NCBI RefSeq assembly: GCF_048265905.1
Contig: NZ_JBLXAP010000002.1
Location: forward strand, 103,796-127,795
Length of the DNA: 24,000 nt
Source of the DNA: Pseudomonas sp.
Lineage (GTDB): Bacteria; Pseudomonadota; Gammaproteobacteria; Pseudomonadales; Pseudomonadaceae
Reading direction: 5' to 3'
A program made the position numbers and the translations under genes. This document shows positions 8,578-24,000 of the stretch, piece after piece. Numbering within the stretch: position 1 is the stretch's first letter; each line of letters starts with the position of its first letter. Below the pieces are notes generated by a model. The model was given only the letters and a program-made list of their open reading frames with translations. It made no database searches and was not told the DNA's origin.

Positions 8578-8945
8578 TAAGCGGTTCGTATCCAGTCTGA
8601 GCCTGTAGCTATAAGCCTTTATGTTCTGCCAAGTGCTGTACTTGCGCCCAGAGACCTGCTGGTTTTGGACTACGCTGGCTGAATATCTCGTTTCGTCCAC
8701 ATCCTGACCTCAACCACATCTGCCTGTCGCACCAGCGGTTCGCGCGTAGCGGAACTGCGTCACAAAAAATACAGTTATTTCACTCACTTAACCGCTAAGT
8801 AAGCCTGTTTTGAACGGCTAGTTATTTAGCGTTAGCGCCTTAGTGTGAATTGTTCCAAGTCGCTATCTAAAGTATTGCTAGTGTAACTGTACTCGCGCCT
8901 AAGCCTTTGATTAAAAACGTTAAATATTTGGCGCCAAGGAAAGGT

Positions 8946-10277
8946 ATGCTTAATGATACGGGTGCACCGCGGCGCCTCTTGGTCGTCGATCCATGTGATG
9001 ATTGCCGCTCGCTATTACCAAGTCTTCGTGAGGCAGGCTGGACCGTGGAAGGCTGCCTGCTTGAGCATGCAGAGGAGCGTGAATGCGATGTCGGTTTGAT
9101 CCGGCTCAATGAAATGCACTTGCGTCGCCCTGCCGCAATCAAGCAACTGTTAAGCCGCAGTGGTACTGAGTGGATTGCAGTGCTTAGCCCTGACTTGCTG
9201 TCTTCGGTTAATACCCTTGGTGAGTTTGTGGGCGAGTGGTTTTTTGACTATCACACCTTGCCGTTTGACGTGTCTCGGGTGCATGTGACCTTGGGCCGAG
9301 CCTACGGCATGGCAAGGCTACGTGGACGAAAAAGCGGCATCATTGATGATCATGAAAATGAGCTGCTTGGTCAGAGCGCGCCCATCCGTGATTTACGTAA
9401 ATTGCTGGCTAAACTTGCGCCGACTCATTCTCCGGTATTGATCCGTGGTGAAAGCGGTACGGGTAAAGAGTTAGTCGCAAGAACCTTGCACCGCCGTTCG
9501 AGCCGAGCAGGTAAGCCGTTTATTGCGATCAACTGCGGAGCAATTCCTGAGCACTTAATTCAGTCAGAATTATTTGGTCACGAGAAAGGTGCATTTACCG
9601 GCGCACATCAACGCAAAATCGGCCGGATTGAATCGGCAGACGGCGGCACGCTGTTTCTTGATGAAATTGGCGATTTACCCCTTGAGTTGCAGGCTAACCT
9701 GCTGCGTTTTCTGCAAGAGAAACAAATAGAGCGGGTGGGAGGGAGCCAGCCAATATCGGTTGACGTTAGGGTTCTGGCTGCAACTCACATCGATCTTGAA
9801 GCCGCGATCGATAACGGCAGTTTCCGCGAAGACCTGTATTACCGCCTTAATGTCCTGCAGGTGCATACCGCCGCTTTGCATGAGCGAGCGGCGGATATTC
9901 CGATGTTGGCAAATTACTTCGCCAGTCTATACAGCGCCGAAACTGGTCGGCGGGCCAAGCGCTTTAGTGAAGAAGCATTGAAGCAGTTAGCTGAGCACAA
10001 ATGGCCCGGTAATGTCCGTGAGTTGGCGAATCGAGTGCGGCGAGGTTTGGTGTTGGCAGAGGGGCGTCAGATCGAAGCCAAGGATCTTGGTCTTGAACAA
10101 TGCAGCATTCTTATTGAGCGGCTTGGCACCTTGGAAGACTACAAGCGCAAAGCAGAGATTCAGGCGCTCAGCGATGCAATGGCGAGGTATCCTGAGAACT
10201 GTAGCCAGGCGGCCCGCGGCTTGGGTATCTCACGGCCGACATTTTATCGCTTGCTGCATAAGCACCAGATTCGCTGA
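8946..10277 (+). CDS. Sigma54-dependent transcriptional activator (bacterial EBP) with a degenerate receiver-like N-terminal domain
   Basis: The AAA+ core has Walker A GESGTGKE, an intact GAFTGA loop (HEKGAFTGAH), Walker B LFLDEIGD and the FREDLYYRLNV motif. The C-terminus has a Fis-type HTH (CSQAARGLGISRPTFYRLL). The N-terminal ~125 aa look REC-like (LLVVDPCDD...), but the usual phospho-acceptor position reads DVGLIRLNE. I placed the start at ATG 8946 (AAGGA 5 nt upstream) rather than the TTG at 8907. Confidence 0.9.
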   Translation: MLNDTGAPRRLLVVDPCDDCRSLLPSLREAGWTVEGCLLEHAEERECDVGLIRLNEMHLRRPAAIKQLLSRSGTEWIAVLSPDLLSSVNTLGEFVGEWFFDYHTLPFDVSRVHVTLGRAYGMARLRGRKSGIIDDHENELLGQSAPIRDLRKLLAKLAPTHSPVLIRGESGTGKELVARTLHRRSSRAGKPFIAINCGAIPEHLIQSELFGHEKGAFTGAHQRKIGRIESADGGTLFLDEIGDLPLELQANLLRFLQEKQIERVGGSQPISVDVRVLAATHIDLEAAIDNGSFREDLYYRLNVLQVHTAALHERAADIPMLANYFASLYSAETGRRAKRFSEEALKQLAEHKWPGNVRELANRVRRGLVLAEGRQIEAKDLGLEQCSILIERLGTLEDYKRKAEIQALSDAMARYPENCSQAARGLGISRPTFYRLLHKHQIR

Positions 10278-10289
10278 GGTTGCTTAGGC

Positions 10290-10493
10290 TCAGAGCCTGA
10301 AAAAATAGGGAAGAGCTATAAGTGAGCAACCAATCGCAACCATCAGCAAAGTGCTGCTAATGAAGTACGGAAACAGCATCAGCCCCAATCCGCAAATAAA
10401 AGGCATGGTTCTACTGCGCTTTCGCCCGTAGATAAAAAAGCCCAGCCCGACCGAGCCGAATACTAATCCCCAGAGCATTGCTTGAGTATCCAC
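10290..10493 (-). CDS. Small hydrophobic protein with two predicted TM helices, trailing the fap operon
   Basis: The ORF-track entry is 10290..10541. The sequence ...MLWGLVFGSVGLGFFIYGRKRSRTMPFICGLGLMLFPYFISSTLLMVAIGCSLIALPYFFRL has two hydrophobic stretches separated by a basic loop. The start is uncertain: GTG 10493 has GGCGAGG upstream, and ATG 10478 and GTG 10541 are alternatives. It is on the same strand as fapF and 58 nt downstream of it. Confidence 0.45.
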   Translation of the reverse strand: MDTQAMLWGLVFGSVGLGFFIYGRKRSRTMPFICGLGLMLFPYFISSTLLMVAIGCSLIALPYFFRL

Positions 10494-10543
10494 AACAACC
10501 TCGCCTGAACGGTGCTTGGATTGATTGCATAGTAGGCGCACGA

Positions 10544-10583
10544 AGACCTAACCGAAGCACGCTGCGGTTAGGTCTGTGGATAA
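10544..10583. repeat. Stem-loop AGACCTAACCG-N10-CGGTTAGGTCT abutting a perfect DnaA box (TGTGGATAA 10575-10583) between fapF and the small ORF
   Basis: An 11-bp perfect inverted repeat read directly. There is no U-tract on either strand, so it is probably not an efficient terminator. Confidence 0.7.
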
Positions 10584-10599
10584 GTTAAGCCTTCCAGAG

Positions 10600-11856
10600 C
10601 TAGAAGTAGTAAGGAAATCTGACGCTGAATGTAAAGTCGGGGGCATCAGGTGTCAGGCCGATGGATAGGTTGGGCACGATGCTCAGGTTTTCATCGAACG
10701 CATAGGTCATGCCGATGTTGTAATACGCGGCATTGGCATCACTGCTTGGCACTGAAGTGAAGCTTTGACCTTCAGCTTTGACTTTGCTTTTTTGCGAAAG
10801 CAGTTGCGAGTAAGACATCGACAAGCTCATGCGCTCGTTAAGCGCAAAGGCCATGCCTAAGCCGAATTGGAACCAGTTACCCAGCTGCACCGTTCCGGGT
10901 TGTTTGACCCCGCGGGTGGAGCTGATGTCGCTGTAGTCTTCCTCCAGGTTGTAGGTGTACGACAGGTTGCCGAAGAGCACGGCTGGGTCAACGGTTTTGA
11001 CCAGCGATATGCCTGGCGTAATTGACCAGACGCCGTTGCCGGTTGGCAGCTCTTCTGGAACCGTCAAGTTGTCGTTGCCGGGCACCTGTTGCAGCTTGAT
11101 ACCGTAAGGATCTTTACCTGTAGGCGCCTTGACTCGCAGGCTCAGCACTGCATCTGGGCGGCTTTCTGTTTCAGTCAGGAATTTATAGGCGATACCGGCG
11201 CTGACATCGCCAATTTCAGGGTTGCGGGTGACGGTTTCTTCAGAGATGGATGTGCTCGCGCCGCCTGCGCCAGCCGACTCAAATGTAGTCTCGCGGTACA
11301 CCACAGGCACGTTGAGGTCGAACTGCCAGCGGTCATGCCAGTTATAGCGGCCAGTCAGGTCGAGGGTTAAGGTGTCAGAGTTAATCTGGTCGACACCGAT
11401 GTTGCCGAGAAAGATGGTGTCGAGGGCCAAGAAACCGTTAAGAAACAGTTGCCTGCTGTCGTAGTGGCTGTAGGTCAGGCCTGTTTCGAAACTGAAGGTG
11501 CCCGTACCGAAGAAGCCGCTGGCCTCGTTGTAAATATTCTCAACGCTGCGTGCTGGCGCTGCATCATCTTGCAGGCTGGTGCCGTAACCGGCATCCCCTG
11601 ATTTGGCCACAGTCTCGCTGCGTCCGGTTGCAGGAATCGGGCGAAGCAGTGGTTTTTGAACGGGTTGCGACTCAACTTGTTTGAGTCGTTGCTCAAGCAC
11701 CATCAGGGCTTTTTGTTGTGCGTCGTAGTGTTGTTTGAGTAGTTCGAGTTGTTGTTTTAATGCGTCTACTTCAGCATCAGTTGCGGCCATCAAGCTGGGG
11801 GCCGCAACAGCGCTAGCCGCACACATAACCAAGCAAACAGACAGGTGCTTCGGCAT
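10600..11856 (-). CDS. fapF: Fap amyloid secretion outer-membrane beta-barrel (FapF-like)
   Basis: A 418-aa protein with a signal peptide ([24 protein letters not shown]) and an N-terminal coiled-coil-like segment ([36 protein letters not shown]). A linker and a beta-strand-rich region follow, ending in the OMP-type aromatic terminus ...FSVRFPYYF. It is the last gene in the fapABCDEF order. Confidence 0.8.
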
Positions 11857-11904
11857 GGTAAGACTTCCGTTTCAGATCAGTCACAAATCCAGCCTAGACG
11901 ATAT

Positions 11905-12666
11905 TTACAGCCCTGTTGGACGCAAATTGTTAAGTTGGTTCCAATTACAATTCAAACCATTCGCCGTCGGCATATTTTCTTTGAGCAATACGTTGAGCGC
12001 GGCGAAGTTGGTGACAGTATTACGTGAGCCATAAATGTCGGTACGTTGAACTGCGCCGCCTGCGCCAAGCTGCTGCAGACTAGCGCCTTGACCGTTAGCA
12101 TCGATTGCCAACTGCAAGCCGCCACCCATTGGGCTGACCTTTACCGTGCCAAGATCGCTGGTCTGCTGCACACTGCTGACTAACTGTGATCCGGACATGA
12201 CAGCAGGCGCCGTATTGCCGTGGCTGACATCGATATTGAGGTTGTTGTAGCTGGTGTTTAAGTCACCGGCAGAACGGGTCGTCTGCACCACACCCTGAAC
12301 ATTATTGAGGCTGTTGCCACCGCTTAGCTGGCCGGTTCCTTGGGCGGGCGAGTTGCCCACTCCAGCGGCGATAGTTGCGGCCGCAGCATCATTGTTGCCC
12401 TGCTTGAATGTGGTGATGTTGAACACCGGCTTGATGCTTTGCTGGATTTGCATATCAACCTTGGCGCCGAGTACTTGGCCACTCGCGTTTTGCCACGTGC
12501 TGGCCATGGTTACACCAAAATTCACAATTCTTCCTGGCAGTACATAGCGGCCCCGTAGTTGCGATAATTCCTGATCACTCAGTTCAGCAGGAACAAACAG
12601 TCCTGTGGCGTGAAGTGGCAGGCTGGCAACCAGGCAGATGGTTGCCACACACAGTTGAGTCTTCAT
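11905..12666 (-). CDS. fapE: Fap system secreted accessory / minor fibril component (FapE-like)
   Basis: It has a signal peptide (MKTQLCVATICLVASLPLHA) and a Gly/Asn/Gln/Ser-rich body, and sits between the C39 peptidase gene and the barrel gene. I chose ATG 12666 as the start (GGAG 6 nt upstream). The alternative ATG 12678 overlaps the fapD stop (TAATG). Confidence 0.65.
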   Translation of the reverse strand: MKTQLCVATICLVASLPLHATGLFVPAELSDQELSQLRGRYVLPGRIVNFGVTMASTWQNASGQVLGAKVDMQIQQSIKPVFNITTFKQGNNDAAAATIAAGVGNSPAQGTGQLSGGNSLNNVQGVVQTTRSAGDLNTSYNNLNIDVSHGNTAPAVMSGSQLVSSVQQTSDLGTVKVSPMGGGLQLAIDANGQGASLQQLGAGGAVQRTDIYGSRNTVTNFAALNVLLKENMPTANGLNCNWNQLNNLRPTGL

Positions 12667-12677
12667 GTCGTGCTCCA

Positions 12678-13358
12678 TTAAAAGAAGTCACTTTGTATAA
12701 AGCCGAACTCCATCAACTCGGCATCATTCACCGGTTTGAAGCGATCCAGCCGATTGCGCGCAGTTAGTGGCTGCGGCGGGTCAGTGAGTGGGTTATTGCG
12801 GTCATAGCCAGCCCCAATCACTGCGAAAACAATACCGTTCCAACCTTGCTTGAACTCCTCGAGCTTGTAGCGCTTGTGACCCAAGACCGGGTCGCCGATA
12901 TAGGCCCAGTTGTCTTCGGTTTTCTGCAGCACCACGAAATGCTTGTAGCCGCGCACATCGATCAGCACCACCACCGGCACTTTGATTTGTTCAAGTTGTT
13001 CGGCAGGAATGCGATAACCGCGGGCGCGCAGGCCAATGGCTTCGACATAACGCTTCATGTCGAGCATTGAGAAACCCTGGCTGCGAACCAGGTCGAGGTC
13101 TGCTTGTTGCAGCATGCCTTCGATCACGGTTTGTTCATCGATGTCGAAGCGATAACCCTGATACAGAATGGTCGCCAAGGATGCAGCGCCGCAGCTGAAA
13201 TCAGTTTTTTGTTCAATCAGATTGCTAAAGCGTCGTTCGCGAAAGCTCTCGACGTTCTTGAATGCCAAGGCACCACCCGGTAGCACCGGAAAGCCCAGTT
13301 GAGCAGAGTAGGATGCAGGGCAAACCAGCATGATCAGGACAACGAGAAGGGTGCGCAT
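12678..13358 (-). CDS. fapD: Periplasmic C39-family cysteine peptidase (FapD-like)
   Basis: It has a signal peptide and C39 catalytic signatures: Q..DFSCGAASLATIL (Cys), GYKHFVVL (His) and YIGDP (Asp). This is the position of fapD in the operon. Confidence 0.85.
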   Translation of the reverse strand: MRTLLVVLIMLVCPASYSAQLGFPVLPGGALAFKNVESFRERRFSNLIEQKTDFSCGAASLATILYQGYRFDIDEQTVIEGMLQQADLDLVRSQGFSMLDMKRYVEAIGLRARGYRIPAEQLEQIKVPVVVLIDVRGYKHFVVLQKTEDNWAYIGDPVLGHKRYKLEEFKQGWNGIVFAVIGAGYDRNNPLTDPPQPLTARNRLDRFKPVNDAELMEFGFIQSDFF

Positions 13359-13370
13359 AAGTCAGTCCTT

Positions 13371-13406
13371 GTAAAAGAAAGGGACTCCGAAACCTCCGGA
13401 GTCCCC
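13371..13406 (-). terminator. Strong intrinsic terminator or attenuator inside the fap operon, between fapC and fapD
   Basis: The minus strand reads GGGACTCCG-GAGGTTT-CGGAGTCCC followed by TTTCTTTTAC: a 9-bp GC-rich stem, a 7-nt loop and a U-tract. It starts about 10 nt after the fapC stop and ends about 13 nt before the fapD RBS. Confidence 0.75.
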
Positions 13407-13415
13407 AGGACTTGC

Positions 13416-14429
13416 TTAGTAGCGAAGCGACTCGCCGCCGCCAGAACCGCCAGCTGGGCACGAGGTGCAGCCTGCAGCAATCGACAGGGAGTTGCTTTGC
13501 TGGTTACCAGCACCCGCCGCCACGTTGACACCGACGTTACCCGAAACACGGTTCAGTGAGCCGCTGAGCACTGCAGTGTTAACCACTGGAGTGTTGAAGC
13601 CAGCTACAACCGGGATATTGCCTGAGACCACACCGAGCAGGCCGATCACACCTTCTTCGTTGAAGGCCAGTGCGCCGCCGTCATCGTTAAGGTCTTGAGC
13701 GCCTTGGGCGTCGCTATCAAGATCTACGTGACCGGTGTTGCTGCCACCTGGGTGACCTTCACCTTCCCAAGAGTCGAGATAGACATCGCCAATCTGGTCA
13801 GACTTGCCTTTGTAGCCACCAATAGCGGCCATGCCCAAGGTGACTTTTGCAGAGCCATAGTCAAGGGTGGCATTGTTGTTGGTGGTGTTGCCAGAAATAG
13901 ACTGAGTGGCTGTGCTGCTGGCGGTAGAGAACGCGCCGGCAGAGACGGCTGCAGCCATGTCGTTTTTCTGTTGGTTATAAGTACCAGCTGCAATGTTGGC
14001 ACCGACGTTACCACTGGCGCCGTTAAGCGAGTTGGTAAGCGCTGCTGTACTTGGGTTGGAGAAGTTTTTCACGCCGTTGTTGGTCAGCTTCTGGTTAACA
14101 GTAGTTGACGCCTCGGCGGTACCAAAGACAAAGCTTGCATCAGCACTGGCAAGTGCTGCGGCGTTGGCTTGTTGGTTATTGGTACCTGCAACAACGTTGA
14201 TACCGACGTTACCCGAGGCGCCTGCCCCAACGTCATCAACGCCTGCAGCGTTTTCAGTGCCTTCGTTACGTACGCCGTTATTTTTGATGATCTGGGTATC
14301 GTCAACAGTTGCGGATGCACCTGTTTCAGGGAACCAAGATTTTTTTTGATCAGCTTGTACGGTTGTCGCTGCCATGGCTACTGCCAAAGCGAGTGCCAGC
14401 GGCGTCATTACTACCATTTTAGTTTTCAT
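13416..14429 (-). CDS. fapC: Major functional-amyloid subunit (FapC-like)
   Basis: A 337-aa protein with signal peptide MKTKMVVMTPLALALAVAMAATTVQA. It has three imperfect repeats sharing SGNVG(I/A/V)N(V/I)(V/A)AG..NQQ.N, arranged as R1, short linker, R2, ~100-aa linker, R3. A C-terminal CxxC (AAGCTSCPAGG) is present, as described for FapC. Confidence 0.85.
   Translation of the reverse strand: MKTKMVVMTPLALALAVAMAATTVQADQKKSWFPETGASATVDDTQIIKNNGVRNEGTENAAGVDDVGAGASGNVGINVVAGTNNQQANAAALASADASFVFGTAEASTTVNQKLTNNGVKNFSNPSTAALTNSLNGASGNVGANIAAGTYNQQKNDMAAAVSAGAFSTASSTATQSISGNTTNNNATLDYGSAKVTLGMAAIGGYKGKSDQIGDVYLDSWEGEGHPGGSNTGHVDLDSDAQGAQDLNDDGGALAFNEEGVIGLLGVVSGNIPVVAGFNTPVVNTAVLSGSLNRVSGNVGVNVAAGAGNQQSNSLSIAAGCTSCPAGGSGGGESLRY
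13470..13622 (-). repeat. FapC imperfect repeat R3 (approximate bounds; core RVSGNVGVNVAAGAGNQQSNSLSIAA)
   Basis: Protein-level repeat aligned by eye. It is followed directly by the CxxC tail. Confidence 0.7.
13935..14093 (-). repeat. FapC imperfect repeat R2 (approximate bounds; core GASGNVGANIAAGTYNQQKNDMAAAV)
   Basis: Protein-level repeat aligned by eye to R1 and R3. Confidence 0.7.
14130..14288 (-). repeat. FapC imperfect repeat R1 (approximate bounds; core GASGNVGINVVAGTNNQQANAAALA)
   Basis: Protein-level repeat. The DNA core CACCGACGTTACC (plus strand) recurs in all three repeats. Confidence 0.7.
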
Positions 14430-14491
14430 GGTGTATCTCCTTGCCTTGCTGTGTTGGACTTAGGACTTACTCACTTGTGTTGCGCTCAGGG

Positions 14492-15073
14492 TTAATCACT
14501 GACCCTGATACTGAGGTTGTTCCCCATGCGGTTCCCGACCCCAGCACTCTGGTTCAATTGCACGACTCCACGGCTCCCGACAAACGCAGTGTCATCGGTT
14601 GCTACGTGTCGCTCCCCAGTGGAGGGCGCAACTGTTCCTGAGATTTGTGTAATGGCCACGCTTTGCGACAGCACCGAGTCATCCAGGCTGGTTGGCCCCG
14701 AACTCACGCTGATACTTAATGCATTGGCCTGTTGTGTTCCTGCGCCTGCGGATTGGTTGATACCGAGGACGCCGTTACCTGAATTGAATGCGCCAGCCCC
14801 AATGGCCACGCCTGCGTCTTGAGAGCTGTCGACGCCATGAATATTCAGGTTTTGAATTTGTTGGGTCGAAGCGCTGGCGCCGTTACCAATTGCCAGTGCT
14901 CTTGCATTGCTTTGCTGTTGCGATTCGCCAGCCGCTTGGTTGACCGAAACAACGCCCTGATAGTGACTGGCGCTGTTGGTGATATTGGCTTGGTTGATCG
15001 TTTCGGCCAGAGCCGTGGTAGAAAGCGCAGCGCTGCAAACAGCGAGCGTGATTAACAAGGGCAGGGTTCTCAT
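14492..15073 (-). CDS. fapB: Amyloid nucleator-type subunit (FapB-like)
   Basis: A 193-aa protein with signal peptide MRTLPLLITLAVCSAALSTTALA. It has three repeats related to those of FapC: GVVSVNQAAGESQQQSNARALAIG, GVLGINQSAGAGTQQANALSISV and GVVQLNQSAGVGNRMGNNLSIRV. Its start is coupled to the fapA stop (TGAGATG). Confidence 0.8.
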   Translation of the reverse strand: MRTLPLLITLAVCSAALSTTALAETINQANITNSASHYQGVVSVNQAAGESQQQSNARALAIGNGASASTQQIQNLNIHGVDSSQDAGVAIGAGAFNSGNGVLGINQSAGAGTQQANALSISVSSGPTSLDDSVLSQSVAITQISGTVAPSTGERHVATDDTAFVGSRGVVQLNQSAGVGNRMGNNLSIRVSD

Positions 15074-15074
15074 C

Positions 15075-15575
15075 TCACTGGCCTCCGGTAAGCATGTTCA
15101 GAGGTGCCAGTCCGCGTTGAACGGTGCTGTTGATGGTGCTGCCCAGGCCACTGCCCGCGTTGCCGCCTGAATGCCCTGCTGAGCCGGTGTTGGTGGCGCC
15201 TTGATGATTGGCTTGGTCTGTGCCGAGTGCGTTGAAACCTGCAAGATTGCCGTTGGGCAAGATCATCGAGTTGATGCTGGAGCCCGTGGTGATGTTGGCG
15301 AAGTCAGCATCTCCCAGCTCACCACCCATCTGGGTGTTGTTGAGGGTGCCATTGACTGTCGTGACGACTTGCCGAGAAATGTTGGTGTTAACCACCGTTG
15401 GATTGGGGTCGGGAATGTCAGTGGGATGTGTTGCAAGGCGCGGCTGAACCTGGCGACCCAATACGATAATGCCGTCCTGGGCGAACGTAGGTGCAACGTA
15501 GATGCTTGAAAGCATCACAAGCGCTACGGCCAGTAATGACGATTGGAATGACCCTGAACTGTTTGTACGTTCCAT
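15075..15575 (-). CDS. fapA: Secreted, low-complexity protein in the FapA position (putative Fap chaperone/regulator)
   Basis: I placed the start at the internal ATG 15575 (GAAGGA 9 nt upstream), which gives the signal peptide MERTNSSGSFQSSLLAVALVMLSSIYVAPTFAQ. The Asn/Gly/Thr-rich body looks disordered. It is the first gene of the cluster and directly abuts fapB. The assignment rests mainly on position. Confidence 0.6.
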   Translation of the reverse strand: MERTNSSGSFQSSLLAVALVMLSSIYVAPTFAQDGIIVLGRQVQPRLATHPTDIPDPNPTVVNTNISRQVVTTVNGTLNNTQMGGELGDADFANITTGSSINSMILPNGNLAGFNALGTDQANHQGATNTGSAGHSGGNAGSGLGSTINSTVQRGLAPLNMLTGGQ

Positions 15576-15653
15576 GACATCAATTCCTTCTACATCTCTT
15601 CTTGCGCATTGAAGATGTGCAATGCAACTCTGCGGTTGGTTGTGTCGAAGTGT

Positions 15654-15670
15654 TCGCAGGAGTCGTGCCG
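15654..15670 (-). promoter_or_regulatory. Candidate sigma54 (-24/-12) promoter for fapA
   Basis: The minus strand reads CGGCACGACTCCTGCGA, compared with the consensus TGGCACG-N4-TTGCW. GGCACG is perfect, the GG-N10-GC spacing is exact, and there are 3 flanking mismatches. The predicted TSS is near 15644, giving a leader of about 69 nt to ATG 15575. Confidence 0.6.
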
Positions 15671-15689
15671 GAATTGTTTTTTCTTGGAA

Positions 15690-15702
15690 TATCAACGAGT
15701 TA
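15690..15702. promoter_or_regulatory. IHF consensus site TATCAACGAGTTA (WATCAANNNNTTR) between the promoter and the upstream palindromes
   Basis: An exact match to the IHF core consensus with an adjacent T-rich tract (TTGTTTTTTCTT). It is centred roughly at -50 relative to the predicted TSS. Confidence 0.5.
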
Positions 15703-15905: not shown

Positions 15906-16151
15906 GACGCGACCAACCAATGAGACCGTTTTATGTGTGAGCGTGATTAACTCGATAAGTTCGGTGCAATTGGCCGGTGTAGATAGGTTGCGGATTGTCC
16001 TGCGGTCAAGGTTGCAGTGCAGCCGGGAGTAGGGGCTGCAGTTTATTTAAATGACGTTGTAACGAATATGGTCTATCCCTCTCTATTGATATGTCGCGCA
16101 CAAACAACTTCTGTGCGGCTGGCGTATTACAATTAATCCGAGGATGTACAC

Positions 16152-16415
16152 ATGACTAACAAAACTACACTTGCTGCTACCGGTGCTGCTATCGCGTTCA
16201 CTGCTGCAACCATGTTTGCAACCATGGCCAGCACTGTTGTTGTCGCTGAAGATTCGCCTGTTCAATGCTTTGGTGTTAACGCATGCAAAGGACAGAATGA
16301 CTGCAAAACTGCTGATAACGCCTGTAAAGGCCAGGGCATCTGTAAAGGCCATGGCTTCAAAGCGATGTCTTTGGCTGATTGCAATGCTGCCAAGGGTCGC
16401 GTTGGCGAAGAGTAA
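16152..16415 (+). CDS. bufA: Bufferin-type RiPP precursor (DUF2282-like / 6-Cys type) with a Sec signal peptide
   Basis: An 87-aa ORF with GAGGA 8 nt upstream. It has the signal peptide MTNKTTLAATGAAIAFTAATMFATMASTVVVA. The core is EDSPVQCFGVNACKGQNDCKTADNACKGQGICKGHGFKAMSLADCNAAKGRVGEE, with six Cys. It lies immediately upstream of DUF692 and DUF2063 genes. Confidence 0.8.
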   Translation: MTNKTTLAATGAAIAFTAATMFATMASTVVVAEDSPVQCFGVNACKGQNDCKTADNACKGQGICKGHGFKAMSLADCNAAKGRVGEE

Positions 16416-16425
16416 GATTGCAGCA

Positions 16426-16463
16426 ACAGGGAGCAGCCATCAGTTGATGGCTGCTCCTGTTTT
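16426..16463 (+). terminator. Stem-loop plus short T-run between the precursor and enzyme genes (candidate attenuator)
   Basis: ACAGGGAGCAGCCATCA / TGATGGCTGCTCCTGT forms a stem of about 16 bp with one bulged G, followed by TTTT. It lies 10 nt after the bufA stop and 30 nt before bufB. Confidence 0.6.
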
Positions 16464-16492
16464 ACTGTCCGGATCTAACCAAGGAGCTTGGC

Positions 16493-17338
16493 ATGCCAGC
16501 TAAGTCAGACTGTCTTGGCTACGGCCTAGGGCTGCGAATTCCCTATTATCAGGAAATCCTGGAGCAACGACCTGATGTCGATTGGTTCGAGGTGATTTCT
16601 GAAAATTTCATGATTGAGGGCGGCAAAGCCCTTTATCACCTGGATGCGGTCGCCGAGCACTATCCAATAGTGATGCACGGCGTATCGCTGTCTATTGGCG
16701 GTCCACACGAGCTGGATCGCGATTACCTCAAACGTCTAAAGCTGCTGGCAGAGCGAGTTAAACCGCAATGGATCTCTGACCACCTGTGCTGGAGCCGCGG
16801 TAATGCCCATCACCTGCACGATTTGCTACCACTGCCTTTCACTGATGAAAGTTTGCAGCACGTAGCGGCGCGAGTTCATCAGGTACAGGACGTTATTGAG
16901 CGTCCGCTGGTGCTGGAAAATGCTTCAACCTATATCCGCAGCGCTGGCGACAAGTTCACCGAGTGGGAGTTTCTCTCGGAACTGACGGCAATCACTGGCT
17001 GCGATTTACTGCTGGATGTGAACAACGTTTACGTCAGTGCGCGTAATCATGATTTTGACCCATGGACCTACATCAGCAGTTTGCCTGTGGATAAAATCCG
17101 CCAGCTGCATTTGGCCGGGCACACCGATTACGGCAATTATCTGATTGATACTCACGATCACCCGGTATGTGACCCTGTTTGGCAGTTGTACGAGCGCACT
17201 ATCAAACATCTGGGGCCGGTCGCGACCATGATCGAGCGTGATGACCATTACCCTCCATTTGCTGAGCTGATGGCCGAACTGCAAAAAGCCCGCGAGCTAG
17301 GCGCTAAAGCACTTCAGGCGGAGTCATTATGCGGTTGA
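16493..17338 (+). CDS. bufB: DUF692 / MNIO (multinuclear non-heme iron oxidative) enzyme, BufB/MbnB-like
   Basis: A 281-aa ORF with AAGGAG RBS. It has the typical DUF692 blocks DWFEVISENF, VMHGVSLSIGG, WISDHLCW, PLVLENAS, LLLDVNNVYVSARNH, LHLAGH, IDTHDHPV and MIERDD. Confidence 0.88.
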   Translation: MPAKSDCLGYGLGLRIPYYQEILEQRPDVDWFEVISENFMIEGGKALYHLDAVAEHYPIVMHGVSLSIGGPHELDRDYLKRLKLLAERVKPQWISDHLCWSRGNAHHLHDLLPLPFTDESLQHVAARVHQVQDVIERPLVLENASTYIRSAGDKFTEWEFLSELTAITGCDLLLDVNNVYVSARNHDFDPWTYISSLPVDKIRQLHLAGHTDYGNYLIDTHDHPVCDPVWQLYERTIKHLGPVATMIERDDHYPPFAELMAELQKARELGAKALQAESLCG

Positions 17339-18153
17339 GTCAGTGGCAGCAAGAGATTGAAACCTATTTGCTTGGGGCTGACTCGGTTGCCAATTCTGAA
17401 TTGCGCGCCACGCTGGTGGGCAGCGCGAACCTTGATGTCGATCTGGGCTTGGCGATTTATCACAACGCCTATCGTGCACGGCTGATCGAAACCCTGCGCG
17501 GCGATTACAGCGCGGTGCATGGTTGGATGGGCGACGAAGAATTTGATGCACTGGCGCTGGCCTATATCAATGCCTATCCGCCCGATCATTTCAGCCTGCG
17601 TTGGCTGGGTGCCCGGTTTGCCGAGTTCATCGAGGCTCATCTGATACCTGAGCAAGCCGAACCATTGGCCGAGTTGGCGCGTTTTGAGTGGGCGTTCACC
17701 CTGTCATTCGATGCAGCAGATGGCCAGCCGCTAACAGAAGCTTTGCTCGCCAGCTTGCAGGCTGATGAGTGGCCAAATCTGCAAACACGCTTGTTGCCAA
17801 GCGTGCAGTGGCAAACGTTGCGTTATAACACCCTGGCGTTATGGCGCGCGTTGAAAGACGACAGCGAATTTCCAGGCAGTCACGCGCTGGAGCAAGTGTC
17901 AGTATGCTTGATTTGGCGCAATGGTTTGATTAGCCGCTATCGCACGCTTGCACCTGATGAAGCCAGTGCGCTCTACAAAATGGCAGTGCAAGGCGGCAGC
18001 TTTGCCGAGCTCTGCGCTGACCTTACACCTCTAGGTGATAACGCAATGGGTCAGGCAATTACATGGATTCGCCAGTGGCTGGCTGACGGAACCTTGCAGC
18101 GTCACATTGGTGAGCCAGTCGTCTATCAGGTCGATAGCTTCATCAATCAATAA
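17329..18153 (+). CDS. bufC: DUF2063-family partner protein (BufC-like)
   Basis: A 274-aa ORF whose ATG overlaps the bufB 3' end by 10 nt, suggesting translational coupling. The N-terminal motif region (YHNAYRARLIETLRGDY..V....GDEEF..LA..YI...P) is typical of DUF2063 proteins paired with DUF692. Confidence 0.8.
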   Translation: MRLSQWQQEIETYLLGADSVANSELRATLVGSANLDVDLGLAIYHNAYRARLIETLRGDYSAVHGWMGDEEFDALALAYINAYPPDHFSLRWLGARFAEFIEAHLIPEQAEPLAELARFEWAFTLSFDAADGQPLTEALLASLQADEWPNLQTRLLPSVQWQTLRYNTLALWRALKDDSEFPGSHALEQVSVCLIWRNGLISRYRTLAPDEASALYKMAVQGGSFAELCADLTPLGDNAMGQAITWIRQWLADGTLQRHIGEPVVYQVDSFINQ

Positions 18154-18196
18154 GCTGAGCTACGCTTTTTGTTGTTAGCAAAAAGCGGAGGTTCAC

Positions 18197-19381
18197 ATGA
18201 TTCAATTTATACCGCCGGTATTACGAAGCCTGCAATTGCCGTTGCGCTTGAAATTGTGGGACGGCAAACAGCTTGATCTCGGCCCTCAGCCGCAGGTTAC
18301 GCTGGTGATCAAGGATCCCAGCCTCGTAGTGCAACTGAGCAATCCAAGTCTCGACGTTCTTGGAGGCGCTTATGTTGAGGGTCGTGTTGAGTTAGAAGGC
18401 AAGATGAGTGACATCATTAAGGTCGGTGTCGACCTCAGTGAAGCGCTGGTGCCTGACGACAGCCCCGCCGCGGTTGAACATGAGCGACATGACAAAGCCA
18501 CTGATGCTGCCGCCATAAGTTATCACTACGACCTGTCCAACGAGTTTTATGCACTCTGGCTCGACCCGGAGATGGTCTATTCGTGCGGCTATTTTGCAGC
18601 CGGTAGCGAGTCTTTGGAGCAAGCCCAGTTGGAAAAAATACGCTTGTTGTGCCGAAAGCTGCGCCTGCAACCGGGCGATAAGCTGCTTGATGTCGGTTGT
18701 GGTTGGGGCGGCTTTGCACGCTTGGCTGCCCGCGAGTTTGGTGCAGAGGTTTATGGCATTACCCTCAGTGCCGAGCAACTGAAATTGGCGCGCGAGCGAG
18801 TTGCCGAGCAAGGCCTGGACGATCAGGTAGAGCTGCAACTGATGGATTATCGCGACCTGCCGCAAGATGGGCGATTCGATAAAGTGGTCAGTGTCGGTAT
18901 GTTTGAGCATGTGGGTTACGCCAATCTACCGGAGTATTGCCAGTGCCTGTATGGCGCGGTCAAACCCGGCGGCCTGGTGATGAACCACGGTATTACCGCG
19001 CGCCATACAGATGGTCGTGCGGTTGGCCACGGTGCGGGTGACTTTATCGGCAAATATGTTTTTCCACATGGCGAACTGCCCCATCTTTCTGTCATGACTG
19101 CTGCGCTGAGTGACGCAGGATTGGAAGTGGTTGATGTCGAAAGCTTGCGCCTGCATTACGCGCGTACCTTGAACTTTTGGAGTGAAAGGCTTGAGACGCA
19201 ACTCGATAAAGCTGCGCTAATGGTTCCAGAACAAGCGTTGCGAATTTGGCGTTTGTATCTGGCGGGTTGCGCGTATGGTTTTGCCCAAGGCTGGATGAAC
19301 TTGCACCAAATATTGGCGGTTAAACCACTCTTGAATGGCGGTCATAATTTGCCGTGGTCGCGTGCGGATATCTATTCTTGA
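18197..19381 (+). CDS. Cyclopropane-fatty-acyl-phospholipid synthase family SAM-dependent methyltransferase
   Basis: A 394-aa ORF with GGAGG RBS, 43 nt after bufC. It has CMAS-family blocks: HYDLSNEFYALWLDPEMVYSCGYF, SAM-binding LLDVGCGWGG, VSVGMFEHVG and LRIWRLYLAGCAYGF. Confidence 0.85.
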   Translation: MIQFIPPVLRSLQLPLRLKLWDGKQLDLGPQPQVTLVIKDPSLVVQLSNPSLDVLGGAYVEGRVELEGKMSDIIKVGVDLSEALVPDDSPAAVEHERHDKATDAAAISYHYDLSNEFYALWLDPEMVYSCGYFAAGSESLEQAQLEKIRLLCRKLRLQPGDKLLDVGCGWGGFARLAAREFGAEVYGITLSAEQLKLARERVAEQGLDDQVELQLMDYRDLPQDGRFDKVVSVGMFEHVGYANLPEYCQCLYGAVKPGGLVMNHGITARHTDGRAVGHGAGDFIGKYVFPHGELPHLSVMTAALSDAGLEVVDVESLRLHYARTLNFWSERLETQLDKAALMVPEQALRIWRLYLAGCAYGFAQGWMNLHQILAVKPLLNGGHNLPWSRADIYS

Positions 19382-22693: not shown

Positions 22694-22709
22694 GCGAATT
22701 ATCGCCTAT
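22690..22709. promoter_or_regulatory. Palindrome ATAGGCGA-ATTA-TCGCCTAT overlapping the regulator stop codon, with a repeated half-site ATAGGCGG at 22722-22729; candidate UAS
   Basis: Read directly. The two elements lie about 100 and 70 bp upstream of the sigma54 promoter at 22792. The function is inferred. Confidence 0.35.
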
Positions 22710-22791
22710 GCGTGATCGGTTATAGGCGGATTGTTGCCGGTATTCGGTTGTTCATTTGTCAAAACCCCTCTAGAGCAGGACTTTCACGTAT

Positions 22792-22807
22792 TGGCACGGC
22801 ATCTGCT
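22792..22807 (+). promoter_or_regulatory. Strong candidate sigma54 (-24/-12) promoter
   Basis: TGGCACGGCATCTGCT compared with the consensus TGGCACG-N4-TTGCW. TGGCACG is perfect, the spacing is exact, and there is one mismatch in the -12 element. It lies downstream of a DctD-type EBP and upstream of the TAXI-TRAP gene. Confidence 0.7.
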
Positions 22808-23071
22808 AAGTTTGATGTAACCCGTTTTTTGTTTACGGGTAATCCAATAAGAAAGACTAGAGGTTTGCCATGAATCATCTTGCCTATTGCGTAAGTCATT
22901 CGCACATAACAGCAAACGCCTTCTCCAGTGCGCCGGGCAATATGCCTCGCGTAAGCGAAAGCTTATTTCTGACGCTCCAATAAGATCTGACGCCTGCCAG
23001 CCTCTTTGCAGGGGGCATCGTCTACAGTGAAAAACTCTGCATAAAGCCATAACAACGACGGAGATTCATCC

Positions 23072-24000
23072 ATGCGATTGACCAAGCGTTTAAGCCTGTT
23101 CGCAGCTGCCGCAACCCTGACTGCAAGCACTGCAGTTCTGGCAGCCCCAACCTTTATCAACATCCTCACGGGCGGCACCAGCGGTGTTTACTACCCGATT
23201 GGTGTTGGCCTGTCGCAGATCTACAGCAACGGCATTGAAGGTTCGAAAACCTCAGTTCAAGCGACCAAGGCGTCGGTTGAGAACCTCAACTTGCTGCAAG
23301 CAGGCCGTGGTGAGCTGGCGCTGGCGCTGGGTGATTCTGTTGCTGACGCCTGGAACGGTGTCGAAGAGGCGGGCTTTAAAGCACCGCTGAAAAAGCTGCG
23401 GGCGATTGCCGGTACTTACCCGAACTACATTCAGATCGTTGCCAACAAAGAGTCGGGCATCAAAACCCTGGCTGACCTGAAAGGCAAAAGCATCTCGGTT
23501 GGCGCACCTAAATCAGGGACTGAGCTGAATGCTCGGGCAATCCTCAAAGCAGCTGGTTTGACCTATGAAGACATGGGCAAAGTTGAGTTCTTGCCGTATG
23601 CCGAGTCGGTCGAGCTGATCAAAAACCGCCAGCTTGACGCTACTCTGCAGTCTTCGGGCCTGGGCATGGCGGCTATTCGTGACCTCGCGGCTACCTTGCC
23701 AATCAACTTCGTGTCGGTTCCAGCTGATGTGGTTGCCAAGATTGGTAACGATGCTTATCAGCCGGCCAGCATCCCAGCGGGCACTTACGACGGTCAGGAC
23801 GCTGACGTTCCAACGGTTGCCATCACTAACATCCTGGTGAGCCATGAAGGTGTTTCTGAAGAAACCGCCTACCAAATGACCAAGCTGATGTTTGAAAACC
23901 TTGAGCGTTTGGGTAATGCCCACTCCGCGGCCAAGGACATCAAGTTGGAAACCGCTGCCAAGAACCTGCCAATCCCGCTGCACCCAGGTGCGGAGCGCTA
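23072..24000 (+). CDS. TAXI-family TRAP transporter solute receptor (3' end outside the window)
   Basis: This ORF is absent from the ORF track because it has no stop within the window; I translated it by hand from ATG 23072 (GGAG 8 nt upstream). The translation reads MRLTKRLSLFAAAATLTASTAVLA/APTFINILTGGTSGVYYPIGVGLSQIY...ELALALGD...YIQIVANKESGIKTLADLKGKSISVGAPKSGTE...LPIPLHPGAERY. The GGTSGVYYPIG and PLHPGAERY blocks are TAXI hallmarks. Confidence 0.85.
   Translation, partial: MRLTKRLSLFAAAATLTASTAVLAAPTFINILTGGTSGVYYPIGVGLSQIYSNGIEGSKTSVQATKASVENLNLLQAGRGELALALGDSVADAWNGVEEAGFKAPLKKLRAIAGTYPNYIQIVANKESGIKTLADLKGKSISVGAPKSGTELNARAILKAAGLTYEDMGKVEFLPYAESVELIKNRQLDATLQSSGLGMAAIRDLAATLPINFVSVPADVVAKIGNDAYQPASIPAGTYDGQDADVPTVAITNILVSHEGVSEETAYQMTKLMFENLERLGNAHSAAKDIKLETAAKNLPIPLHPGAER

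Follow-up and report, generated by a model that had tools for sequence, protein, structure and literature searches.

The locus described in this study is very probably a Buf2-type bufferin biosynthetic operon (the BUF_6/12Cys or "Cys-Lys captophorin" group) of a Pseudomonas from the P. segetis / sp. M30-35 group, and its predicted product, by analogy with characterised relatives, is a small secreted copper-binding peptide. The three open reading frames were found on the forward strand of the window (the whole 24-kb stretch of DNA that was analysed) where the preliminary description had placed them (Table 1), and its identification of bufABC as a bufferin-type RiPP cluster was upheld on every point that can be tested in the sequence, with matches to the BufA2, MNIO_BufB and DUF2063 families. 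A precursor lying outside the bufferin families would have spoken against this identification; instead, BufA scored 91.7 bits against the 60-bit cut-off of the NCBIfam model NF050166 BufA2 (E=2.5e-26). The family searches proposed in that description had a divided outcome, where the models for DUF692/MNIO, DUF2063 and BufA2 (BUF_6/12Cys) matched but DUF2282 stayed below threshold (15.1 bits versus a cut-off of 22.4).

In its gene content, the bufferin 2 cluster is an ordinary member of an already known kind. A search with BufB retrieved 80 species loci, of which 75 contained a BufA2-like ORF upstream of bufB, and the order bufA2-bufB-bufC was clear in nearly all of those 75. The cluster is not under-annotated, as public pipelines already give the correct names: identical proteins in UniRef and RefSeq (Pseudomonas sp.) are called BufA2, MNIO bufferin maturase and HvfC-BufC chaperone. 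Taken alone, the cluster adds little, as it is one further instance of the bufferins/captophorins, periplasmic RiPPs that bind copper and that form a very widespread family characterised recently; its practical use is as a clean and compact Pseudomonas example for Buf2 chemistry, with a short core and four predicted thiooxazoles.

Table 1. Features of the bufABC locus, numbered from the first nucleotide of the window
Feature	Position	Strand	Basis
Promoter-like motif TGTAACG-N16-CTCTA(G), upstream of bufA	16058-16085	+	Conservation; ECF-type appearance
Stem-loop at predicted 5' end of bufA leader, after the -10 element	16093-16119	+	Per-sequence folding
bufA Shine-Dalgarno, GAGGA	16140-16144	+	7 nt upstream of ATG at 16152
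bufA, BufA2-type precursor (87 aa)	16152-16415	+	NCBIfam NF050166; identical to WP_417660804.1, BufA2 family in UniRef
bufA Sec signal peptide, about residues 1-32	16152-16247	+	Inspection
BufA core (55 aa, six Cys)	16248-16412	+	
GC-rich 13-bp hairpin followed by TGTTTT, bufA-bufB spacer	16429-16464	+	Terminator scan
bufB, MNIO (DUF692) maturase (281 aa)	16493-17338	+	NCBIfam NF050167, Pfam PF05114
bufC, DUF2063 partner (PME1 type) with RRE-like C-terminal domain (274 aa)	17329-18153	+	Pfam DUF2063, AF2 fold
cfaB, C17 cyclopropane fatty acid synthase	18197-19381	+	NCBIfam CfaB, 731.9 bits versus cut-off of 650

The precursor and its two enzymes

The precursor contains exactly six cysteines (C39, C45, C51, C58, C64 and C77), all of which are invariant in 20 homologues, and the precursors called in related loci had either 6 or 12-13 cysteines, apart from a few mis-called ORFs with N-terminal extensions. 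Assignment to the Buf1/DUF2282 class was considered and rejected: Pfam DUF2282 gave no match to BufA at E<=0.01 and reached its sub-threshold score only at relaxed settings, therefore the precursor is not Buf1, and it has six cysteines instead of four. The preliminary description had noted that a Sec signal peptide replaces the classical leader of RiPPs, and such a signal is indeed present as judged by eye, both for the signal and for its cleavage site, the N-terminus comprising K4, an Ala/Thr/Phe-rich hydrophobic stretch of approximately 25 residues, and VVA followed directly by ED. There is no lipobox in BufA, because the first cysteine is residue 39 and none lies N-terminal to it. The calculated monoisotopic mass of the reduced core is 5659.53 Da. 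In a low-confidence AF2 model (pLDDT 58), C39 lies in strand 1 and C77 in a short helix. The GAGG of the bufA Shine-Dalgarno sequence is invariant in a 25-sequence alignment.

BufB scored 379.2 bits against NCBIfam NF050167 MNIO_BufB (cut-off 310, E=9e-114) and 375.8 bits against Pfam PF05114 (MbnB_TglH_ChrH; E=1e-112), and the nearest solved structures are 3BWW, TglH and MbnB. Residues H62, H97, E142, D175, N178, H206, D219, H221 and E248 fall in motifs common to MbnB, TglH and 3BWW; at the level of sequence, BufB carries all of the metal-ligand motifs of MNIO enzymes. Its iron ligands were placed with the ligand numbering of MbnB.

BufC matched Pfam DUF2063 at 72.6 bits (cut-off 27.2, E=3e-20) and yielded an AF2 model with a pLDDT of 89, for which the best PDB match in Foldseek was 3DEE/NGO1945 (E=5e-7, TMt 0.77), followed by TglI (E=6e-5), with weak matches to the TbiB1 RRE and MbnC. 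When BufC was compared with PDB sequences, neither phmmer nor a 27-sequence profile gave any match, and 3DEE emerged only from the comparison of folds. The 10-nt overlap of bufB and bufC noted in the preliminary description was confirmed, with the ATG of bufC lying within the 3' end of bufB (ATGCGGTTGA), and this arrangement marks bufC as translationally coupled to bufB.

Related systems and gene neighborhood

Bufferin 2 of Caulobacter vibrioides (buf2ABC, CCNA_02999-03001 / CC2905-CC2907) resembles the Pseudomonas cluster in its Sec signal peptide, six-Cys precursor and MNIO + DUF2063 pair, and the two promoters share a -35 GTAAC and 16-nt spacing. The two systems differ in their -10 element (CGAA in Caulobacter versus CTCTAG here), in core length (61 aa versus 55 aa) and in host, which here is a gammaproteobacterium with a bufferin predicted from its sequence. 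As the preliminary description had stated, no DoxX gene was found among the window genes scanned with Pfam, nor was there one among the genes called within 10 kb on either side of the cluster in its closest relatives, and DoxX was the ORF 3' of bufC in just one of 27 related loci scanned. However, the claim that this is a departure from the canonical layout does not stand, since the founding buf2 operon of Caulobacter likewise consists of three genes and lacks bufD, and even Buf1 can do without DoxX (PMC11626156). The layout observed here, bufA-bufB-bufC without DoxX and without adjacent sigma/anti-sigma genes, is also the one found for Buf2 in the literature (PMC11626156, PMC12452194).

The Buf1 systems (buf1ABCD of Caulobacter and the Pseudomonas-like loci L084, L101 and L200) have the same enzyme pair and presumably the same thiooxazole chemistry, and in the Pseudomonas-like operons a TGTAACG-N16-CTCTAGTG motif is likewise followed by a hairpin. 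Their precursors differ from BufA in having four cysteines and a DUF2282 match (85.5 bits for L101), their operons include DoxX (DUF2282-MNIO-DUF2063-DoxX), and their BufB proteins are just 42-45% identical to BufB here. The EGKCG/Lys-Cys captophorins (oxazolin HvfABC of H. influenzae, fontiphorin FonABC and gonophorin) also combine an MNIO with a DUF2063 (PME1) protein, 5-thiooxazoles on cysteine and copper association; however, their precursors consist of repeats in which Lys precedes Cys, whereas Lys follows Cys in BufA (NACKG, NDCKT), and FonBC leaves motifs of the NACKG and HNDCK types unprocessed (PMC13097082). The Hvf system is also set apart by model scores, BufB reaching 276.9 bits versus 360 on the HvfB model and BufC 22.4 versus 142 on the HvfC model. 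Methanobactin (MbnABC) shares the MNIO fold, the iron ligands and a precursor-binding partner protein, but differs in having a leader peptide instead of a signal peptide, an oxazolone-thioamide product, and a role as a secreted chalkophore for copper acquisition that is induced by copper starvation.

The divergent amyloid operon of the preliminary description was identified as fapABCDEF, with all six products above their NCBIfam equivalog cut-offs. A functional link between fap and buf was rejected: this adjacency is limited to one small clade, that of the closest relatives, and occurs in none of 80 species-level loci, so the fap neighbor provides no functional hint. Downstream, cfaB is a conserved neighbor that probably lies outside the biosynthetic cluster; it follows bufC in about 20 Pseudomonas species, with a histidine kinase in its place in others.

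Promoter and RNA hairpins

The motif upstream of bufA occurs once in the window (0.01 expected by chance), and by its sequence it looks like an ECF-sigma promoter. It is conserved in L201 and in 24 Pseudomonas species loci, approximately 90 nt 5' of bufA. Its -35 element, TGTAAC at 16058-16063, is conserved in more than 30 Pseudomonas sequences and fits the (T/C)GTAAC of ECF16/sigmaF, for which a -35 consensus of TGTAAC has been reported (PMC3511200, PMC8315932, PMC3420878). The ECF16 -10 element, CGAA 16-17 nt downstream, is absent from the motif; the conserved element at this place is CTCTAG(T), therefore the promoter is filed only as ECF-like and not as ECF16. In Caulobacter, where both buf operons are under the control of sigmaF, the site of this factor reads GTAACC-N16-CGAA (PMC3511200); among alphaproteobacterial buf2 loci, L043 and L051 have GTAAC-N15/16-CGAA, and L069 and L076 have CGTAA. 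Transcription of bufA is predicted from this sequence to start at approximately 16091-16094. Scans for other promoter types included one for sigma-70 upstream of bufA, which returned nothing, and one for the sigma-54 consensus, which gave 21 matches where 21 were expected, a chance level; no definition of a SigX consensus was found in the literature.

Across Pseudomonas-like metagenome contigs, the same motif was also found 5' of buf1-type operons (11 loci) and of a gene for a Met-rich secreted peptide (2 loci), where the scan was seeded with the motif itself and the identity of the downstream genes is the only independent evidence. The occurrence of one motif before Buf2 operons, Buf1 operons and the Met-rich peptide gene points to one envelope-stress regulon, which would be like that of sigmaF/NrsF in Caulobacter; NrsF orthologues have been reported in P. 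putida and P. entomophila. Genes for sigma or anti-sigma factors, such as an ECF sigma with a DUF1109 anti-sigma factor, were found neither in the window nor beside the Pseudomonas-like buf1 loci examined (L101/L200). Locus L090, in which the motif lies directly upstream of an ECF sigma gene, was rejected as a lead to the sigma gene, its contig being non-Pseudomonas.

The leader stem-loop formed in all 25 of the Pseudomonas sequences folded, with stems that differ between them (for example, ACTGAAC/GTTCAG versus ACCGGGC/GCCCGG) and with covariation of the outer pair from U-A to C-G in six sequences. The stem-loop of the window itself has a weak z-score (-1.3), and RNAalifold recovered only a 4-bp outer stem in the leader because indels misalign the inner stem. 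No Rfam family was detected in the window at gathering thresholds, nor around the leader at E<=1.

The hairpin between bufA and bufB has a folding energy of -31.6 kcal/mol (z=-5.8), which none of 200 shuffled sequences equalled. Of 77 loci, 76 have a hairpin in this spacer (minimum 8 bp, energy no weaker than -12 kcal/mol; median -26 kcal/mol); it starts approximately 6 nt past the stop codon, and its sequence is unrelated between loci. The U-run on the 3' side, TGTTTT here, is shorter in most Pseudomonas homologues. This hairpin probably increases the amount of precursor relative to enzyme, whether as a possible leaky terminator or by stabilising the 3' end, and its near-universal presence suggests a family-wide mechanism for setting that ratio.

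Predicted pathway, alternative readings and implications

The pathway proposed for the Pseudomonas cluster would begin with transcription from the conserved ECF-type promoter, TGTAACG-N16-CTCTAG, upstream of bufA, after which the bufA-bufB hairpin would probably yield precursor in excess of enzyme, both steps being drawn from sequence comparison. As in Caulobacter Buf2 and related captophorins, BufC would dock the precursor onto BufB in the cytoplasm, where BufB and O2 would convert C45, C51, C58 and C64, each in a C-K motif, into 5-thiooxazoles by four-electron oxidations (-4 Da each). The modified peptide would then be exported by Sec with removal of the signal peptide after VVA32, and a C39-C77 disulfide would bring the total shift to -18 Da from the reduced core of 5659.5 Da. 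In the periplasm, the folded peptide may then act as a Cu(I)/Cu(II) chelator that buffers copper stress. This scheme follows the chemistry reported for the Buf2 family, namely a shift of -18 Da with CysI and CysVI unmodified and the four central cysteines each losing 4 Da, in a Caulobacter system that is induced by copper and protects against it (PMC11626156), and it also draws on the work that assigned the 5-thiooxazole and described the Cys-Lys class of precursors (PMC13097082).

There are several potential alternatives to this scheme. The BufB product could consist of oxazolone-thioamide pairs, as in methanobactin, instead of 5-thiooxazoles; both products correspond to -4 Da, and an oxazolone/thioamide was the structure first put forward for the related oxazolin (PMC11252979). 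However, NMR of Buf1 favors the 5-thiooxazole (PMC11626156), as do later alkylation-assisted HMBC and selective labelling, following which the oxazolin structure was revised (PMC13097082; also preprints), and BufB scored 56.8 bits on the MbnB model, far under its cut-off of 325, making oxazolone-thioamide formation very improbable. Even less credible is a literal reading of the legacy names, by which the DUF2063 protein would be a regulator that binds DNA, the small ORF would encode an integral membrane protein and the three genes would form no RiPP pathway. Older sources do use "putative DNA-binding domain-containing protein" and "integral membrane protein", and the title of the 3DEE entry is that of a putative regulatory protein, but TglI, which the BufC fold also matches, is a proven MNIO partner, DUF2063 proteins are almost always encoded beside MNIOs and are needed for modification (PMC13097082, PMC11626156), and the sole hydrophobic segment of the small ORF is its N-terminal signal sequence.

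Other alternatives leave the thiooxazole biosynthesis in place and concern the role or the extent of the operon. It is doubtful that cfaB belongs to the same transcription unit, as part of a four-gene bufABC-cfaB envelope-stress operon that would couple a periplasmic metallophore with membrane cyclopropanation. The 43-nt spacer between bufC and cfaB, in which there is no terminator, and the retention of this adjacency across Pseudomonas species are in its favor. However, the spacer also holds a -10-like element, CTACGCT at 18160-18166, and an AT-rich inverted repeat at 18163-18187, and the conservation of CTAnnnT in other such spacers suggests that cfaB has its own promoter; cfaB is reportedly RpoS-dependent. 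Furthermore, several buf loci (L007, L016 and L019) lack cfaB or have another gene in its place, and no related locus outside Pseudomonas had it directly 3' of bufC, with a weak opposite-strand match near L062. It is also unlikely, and slightly more so, that the main role of the bufABC product is defense against oxidants such as hypochlorite or against other metals, with its thiol-bearing heterocycles serving as a periplasmic scavenger in an ECF-controlled oxidative-stress regulon. Such a role is favored by the Met-rich peptide gene that the bufA motif also precedes, whose product is similar to MrpX/BcrX from the SigF/NrsF and BcrS systems, which respond to HOCl (PMC4436054, PMC8315932), by the response of Caulobacter sigmaF to Cr and Cd (PMC3511200), and by the reported induction of captophorin clusters by Cu, Au and oxidative stress (PMC13097082), but direct phenotype and binding data on Buf2 and its relatives concern copper only (PMC11626156, PMC13097082). 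Oxidant defense and copper buffering are not mutually exclusive roles.

With a copper-buffering Buf2 operon as the preferred reading, a broader proposal can be made tentatively, at somewhat less than an even chance. Pseudomonas Buf2, the DoxX-containing Buf1 and the MrpX-like Met-rich peptide gene may constitute a single regulon under an undescribed type of ECF promoter, TGTAACGcc-N14-CTCTAGTG followed by a 5' stem-loop. This promoter would derive from the sigmaF/NrsF (ECF16) system, in a gammaproteobacterial form with changed -10 specificity. Such a regulon would provide a combined periplasmic defense against copper and oxidants (HOCl), and one chromosomal slot, livGF ... LysR-SDR, would be occupied interchangeably by the buf1 operon or by the gene for the Met-rich peptide, each behind this promoter. 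The shared and conserved ECF-type promoter offers a handle for finding the regulator of Pseudomonas bufferins and the signal that induces them. If the single regulon is real, bufferins would be part of a periplasmic defense against both copper and HOCl rather than stand-alone copper buffers.

Identity and layout of the cluster

By every measure that sequence affords, the cluster belongs to the Buf2 family (BUF_6/12Cys; Cys-Lys captophorin), in agreement with its preliminary description as bufferin-type. The three open reading frames lie where that description had placed them, all on the forward strand, and the 10-nt overlap it reported between bufB and bufC is also seen, with the bufC ATG inside the final bufB codons (ATGCGGTTGA). 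Identical copies of the three proteins are present in RefSeq (WP_417660804, WP_417660805 and WP_417660806, Pseudomonas sp.), and the UniRef names are BufA2 family metallophore, MNIO family bufferin maturase and HvfC/BufC chaperone. The cluster is an ordinary one that public databases already name correctly.

Features of the window
Feature	Position	Strand	Remarks
atpA (partial) GDC, glmU, DeoR regulator, glmS
fapFEDCBA	8907-15695	-	complete functional-amyloid operon
VpsR-type sigma-54 activator			between glmS and fapFEDCBA
TGTAACG-N16-CTCTA	16058-16085		ECF-type promoter motif, shared with related loci
Leader stem-loop	16093-16119		begins a few nt 3' of the -10 element
bufA	16152-16415	+	87 aa
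bufA-bufB spacer hairpin	16429-16464		13 bp, GC-rich, then TGTTTT
bufB	16493-17338	+	281 aa
bufC	17329-18153	+	274 aa
bufC-cfaB spacer	18154-18196		43 nt
CTACGCT, -10-like element	18160-18166
AT-rich inverted repeat	18163-18187		CGCTTTTTG...CAAAAAGCG
cfaB			after bufABC
dCache histidine kinase and NtrC-type response regulator
End of window	22694-24000		~800 bp after the response-regulator gene lack a convincing ORF

The precursor, BufA, passed the NCBIfam equivalog model BufA2 for periplasmic bufferin-type metallophores (91.7 bits, cut-off 60), the family match for which the preliminary description had proposed an HMM search, while its score against Pfam DUF2282, the Buf1 signature, was 15.1 bits and below the cut-off of 22.4. 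Its gene is preceded by a GAGGA Shine-Dalgarno sequence 7 nt 5' of the ATG, and its N-terminus is of Sec type (K4, a hydrophobic stretch and VVA|ED), with no lipobox. The 55-aa core has a calculated mass of 5659.53 Da when reduced and unmodified and contains six Cys, all invariant among 20 homologues, the central four of which stand in Cys-Lys motifs (NACKG, NDCKT, NACKG and GICKG). The AlphaFold model, which is of low confidence (pLDDT 58), has C39 in a first beta-strand and C77 within a short helix, as reported for bufferins (PMC11626156).

BufB passed the MNIO_BufB equivalog (379 bits, cut-off 310) and fell under the cut-offs of the HvfB, ApyH, ChrH and MbnB models. Its alignment with 3BWW, TglH and MbnB shows common His/Asp/Glu motifs at H62, H97, E142, D175/N178, H206, D219/H221 and E248, positions that we take to be the iron ligands of MbnB. 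BufC contains a DUF2063 domain; sequence searches returned no solved relatives, and its confident model (pLDDT 89) matched best to NGO1945/3DEE (E=5e-7, TMt 0.77), followed by TglI, with weak matches to a lasso-peptide RRE and to MbnC. 3DEE has been named as a type-1 partner protein of MNIOs (PMC13097082). Two other identities were rejected: Buf1, on the points of DUF2282, four Cys and DoxX, and HvfB/HvfC or MbnB, on scores under the respective cut-offs.

No DoxX gene was found in the window, as the preliminary description had stated, but its reading of this absence as an unusual layout was not borne out, since the four-gene form is that of Buf1. Among 80 species-level loci retrieved with BufB as the query, the order bufA2-bufB-bufC is kept in nearly all, and the precursors have either six Cys or a duplicated 12-13. 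The gene following bufC in Pseudomonas is cfaB (~20 species) or a histidine kinase, and among loci outside Pseudomonas only one of 27 ORFs immediately 3' of bufC is DoxX. The Caulobacter operon that defined buf2 (CCNA_02999-03001) likewise has no bufD, and even Buf1 does not require DoxX (PMC11626156). Together, the locus survey and the Caulobacter operon identify the three-gene layout as the norm.

Within the comparison set, ten loci (L042, L050, L052, L054, L056, L057, L059, L062, L073 and L075) encode ~150-aa precursors with 12-13 Cys, in which the 6-Cys domain is duplicated in tandem; in several of these, a Cys close to where the signal sequence ends resembles a lipobox, matching the lipoprotein-type Buf2 of PMC12452194. 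Additionally, in a gammaproteobacterial MAG (L037, 8681-9145), a YHS-domain protein gene lies directly 3' of bufC and overlaps its stop codon, which is consistent with a metal-related role of Buf2 clusters given that YHS is a putative metal-binding domain.

Genomic neighborhood

The divergent amyloid operon noted beside bufA was confirmed as fapABCDEF, each of its six products exceeding the NCBIfam equivalog cut-off. None of the 80 loci has a fap operon within 7 kb, and the divergent arrangement is limited to the nearest clade (L201-L203, BufA 86% identical). The juxtaposition is a local insertion rather than a sign of linked function; because glmS directly adjoins bufA as its upstream neighbor in two other Pseudomonas loci (L001 and L016), the fap operon and the VpsR-type activator together look like an insertion of ~7 kb.

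Downstream, no terminator was found between bufC and cfaB. A CTAnnnT -10-like element is conserved in the bufC-cfaB spacers of the compared loci, and cfaB is therefore probably transcribed from a promoter of its own, which is reported to be RpoS-dependent (Pini et al. 2011). The inverted repeat of this spacer adjoins the cfaB Shine-Dalgarno sequence, and P. fluorescens-group spacers instead contain a conserved GCTATC-N5-GATAGC palindrome and GGTCTACCCTCA. At the position of the ORF-poor end of the window, the closest relatives (L202) continue with genes for an NMT1-like periplasmic binding protein and a DctM-type TRAP transporter. Judging from this gene order, that transporter, rather than bufABC, is probably the target of the two-component pair.

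Putative promoter motif and candidate regulon

The putative promoter and its candidate regulon are the only part of this analysis that goes beyond the descriptions we found, and the motif predicts a transcription start at about 16091-16094. TGTAACG-N16-CTCTA has one match in the window versus 0.01 expected by chance, and its position ~90 nt 5' of bufA is kept in 24 Pseudomonas species and the nearest clade. The -35 element and spacing are those of the ECF16/sigmaF consensus, reported as (T/C)GTAAC-N17-CGAA for ECF16 (PMC8315932) and GTAACC-N16-CGAA for Caulobacter sigmaF, which controls both buf operons there (PMC3511200); alphaproteobacterial loci in the comparison set have GTAAC-N16-CGAA/CGTAA. 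Because the -10 element (CTCTA) is unlike the CGAA of ECF16, we call the motif ECF-like and name no sigma factor.

A metagenome scan seeded with the motif, in which the evidence consists only of the identity and position of downstream genes, returned mostly low-GC chance matches. In Pseudomonas-like contigs (GC 0.59-0.66), the motif precedes three kinds of genes: buf2 operons (~10 loci), buf1-type operons (11 loci; DUF2282 precursor at 85.5 bits, MNIO, DUF2063 and, by eye, a DoxX-resembling ORF) and a secreted Met-rich peptide gene (two loci). This peptide resembles MrpX/BcrX of HOCl-responsive ECF16 regulons. NrsF orthologues have been reported for P. putida and P. entomophila; an NrsF gene is absent both from the window and from the immediate surroundings of the buf1 loci examined.

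Two of these contigs share one chromosomal slot, running from livG/F-like ABC ATPase genes to a LysR regulator and a short-chain dehydrogenase, which holds a buf1-type operon (DUF2282-like precursor, MNIO, DUF2063 and DoxX-like ORF) in one (L200, 10715-13222) and a 78-aa secreted Met-rich peptide gene in the other (L119, 2664-2987), both behind a TGTAACG-N16-CTCTAGTG motif and a leader hairpin. In a contig not from Pseudomonas (L090, 2978-4238; GC 0.56; neighbors LptF/G, DedA and Nth), the motif lies 14 nt 5' of a gene for an ECF sigma factor, and divergent from this gene is one for a 146-aa membrane protein, DoxX-like by eye. The sigma factor may be autoregulated and recognize the TGTAACG-N16-CTCTA promoter type.

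Two predicted RNA elements accompany the operon. The leader stem-loop is present in 25 of 25 Pseudomonas leaders, with varying but compensated stem sequences, and likewise in the leaders of buf1 and Met-rich peptide genes; it is possible that it stabilizes the mRNA or serves as an operator. The bufA-bufB hairpin (-31.6 kcal/mol, z=-5.8) has strong counterparts of unrelated sequence in the same spacer of 76 of 77 loci from many orders. With its short U-run, it fits a candidate leaky terminator or 3' stabilizer that would keep the precursor in excess over the enzymes. Precursor excess through a hairpin after the precursor gene is an arrangement found in other RiPP operons.

Proposed function

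The Buf2 product of Caulobacter shows a shift of -18 Da, with -4 Da at each of the four central Cys, and absorbs near 305 nm, while its CysI and CysVI carry no modification and are probably joined by a disulfide; it is Cu-inducible and protects against Cu (PMC11626156). Assignments of 5-thiooxazoles followed later (PMC13097082). By homology, the whole mechanism of the Pseudomonas bufABC may be proposed as follows. In the cytoplasm, BufC would present the precursor to BufB, which would oxidize C45, C51, C58 and C64, at core positions 13, 19, 26 and 32, to 5-thiooxazoles. The peptide would then be exported by Sec and cut by signal peptidase after A32 to leave EDSPVQ as the predicted mature N-terminus, a disulfide would form between C39 and C77, and the 55-aa product would act as a buffer of periplasmic copper.
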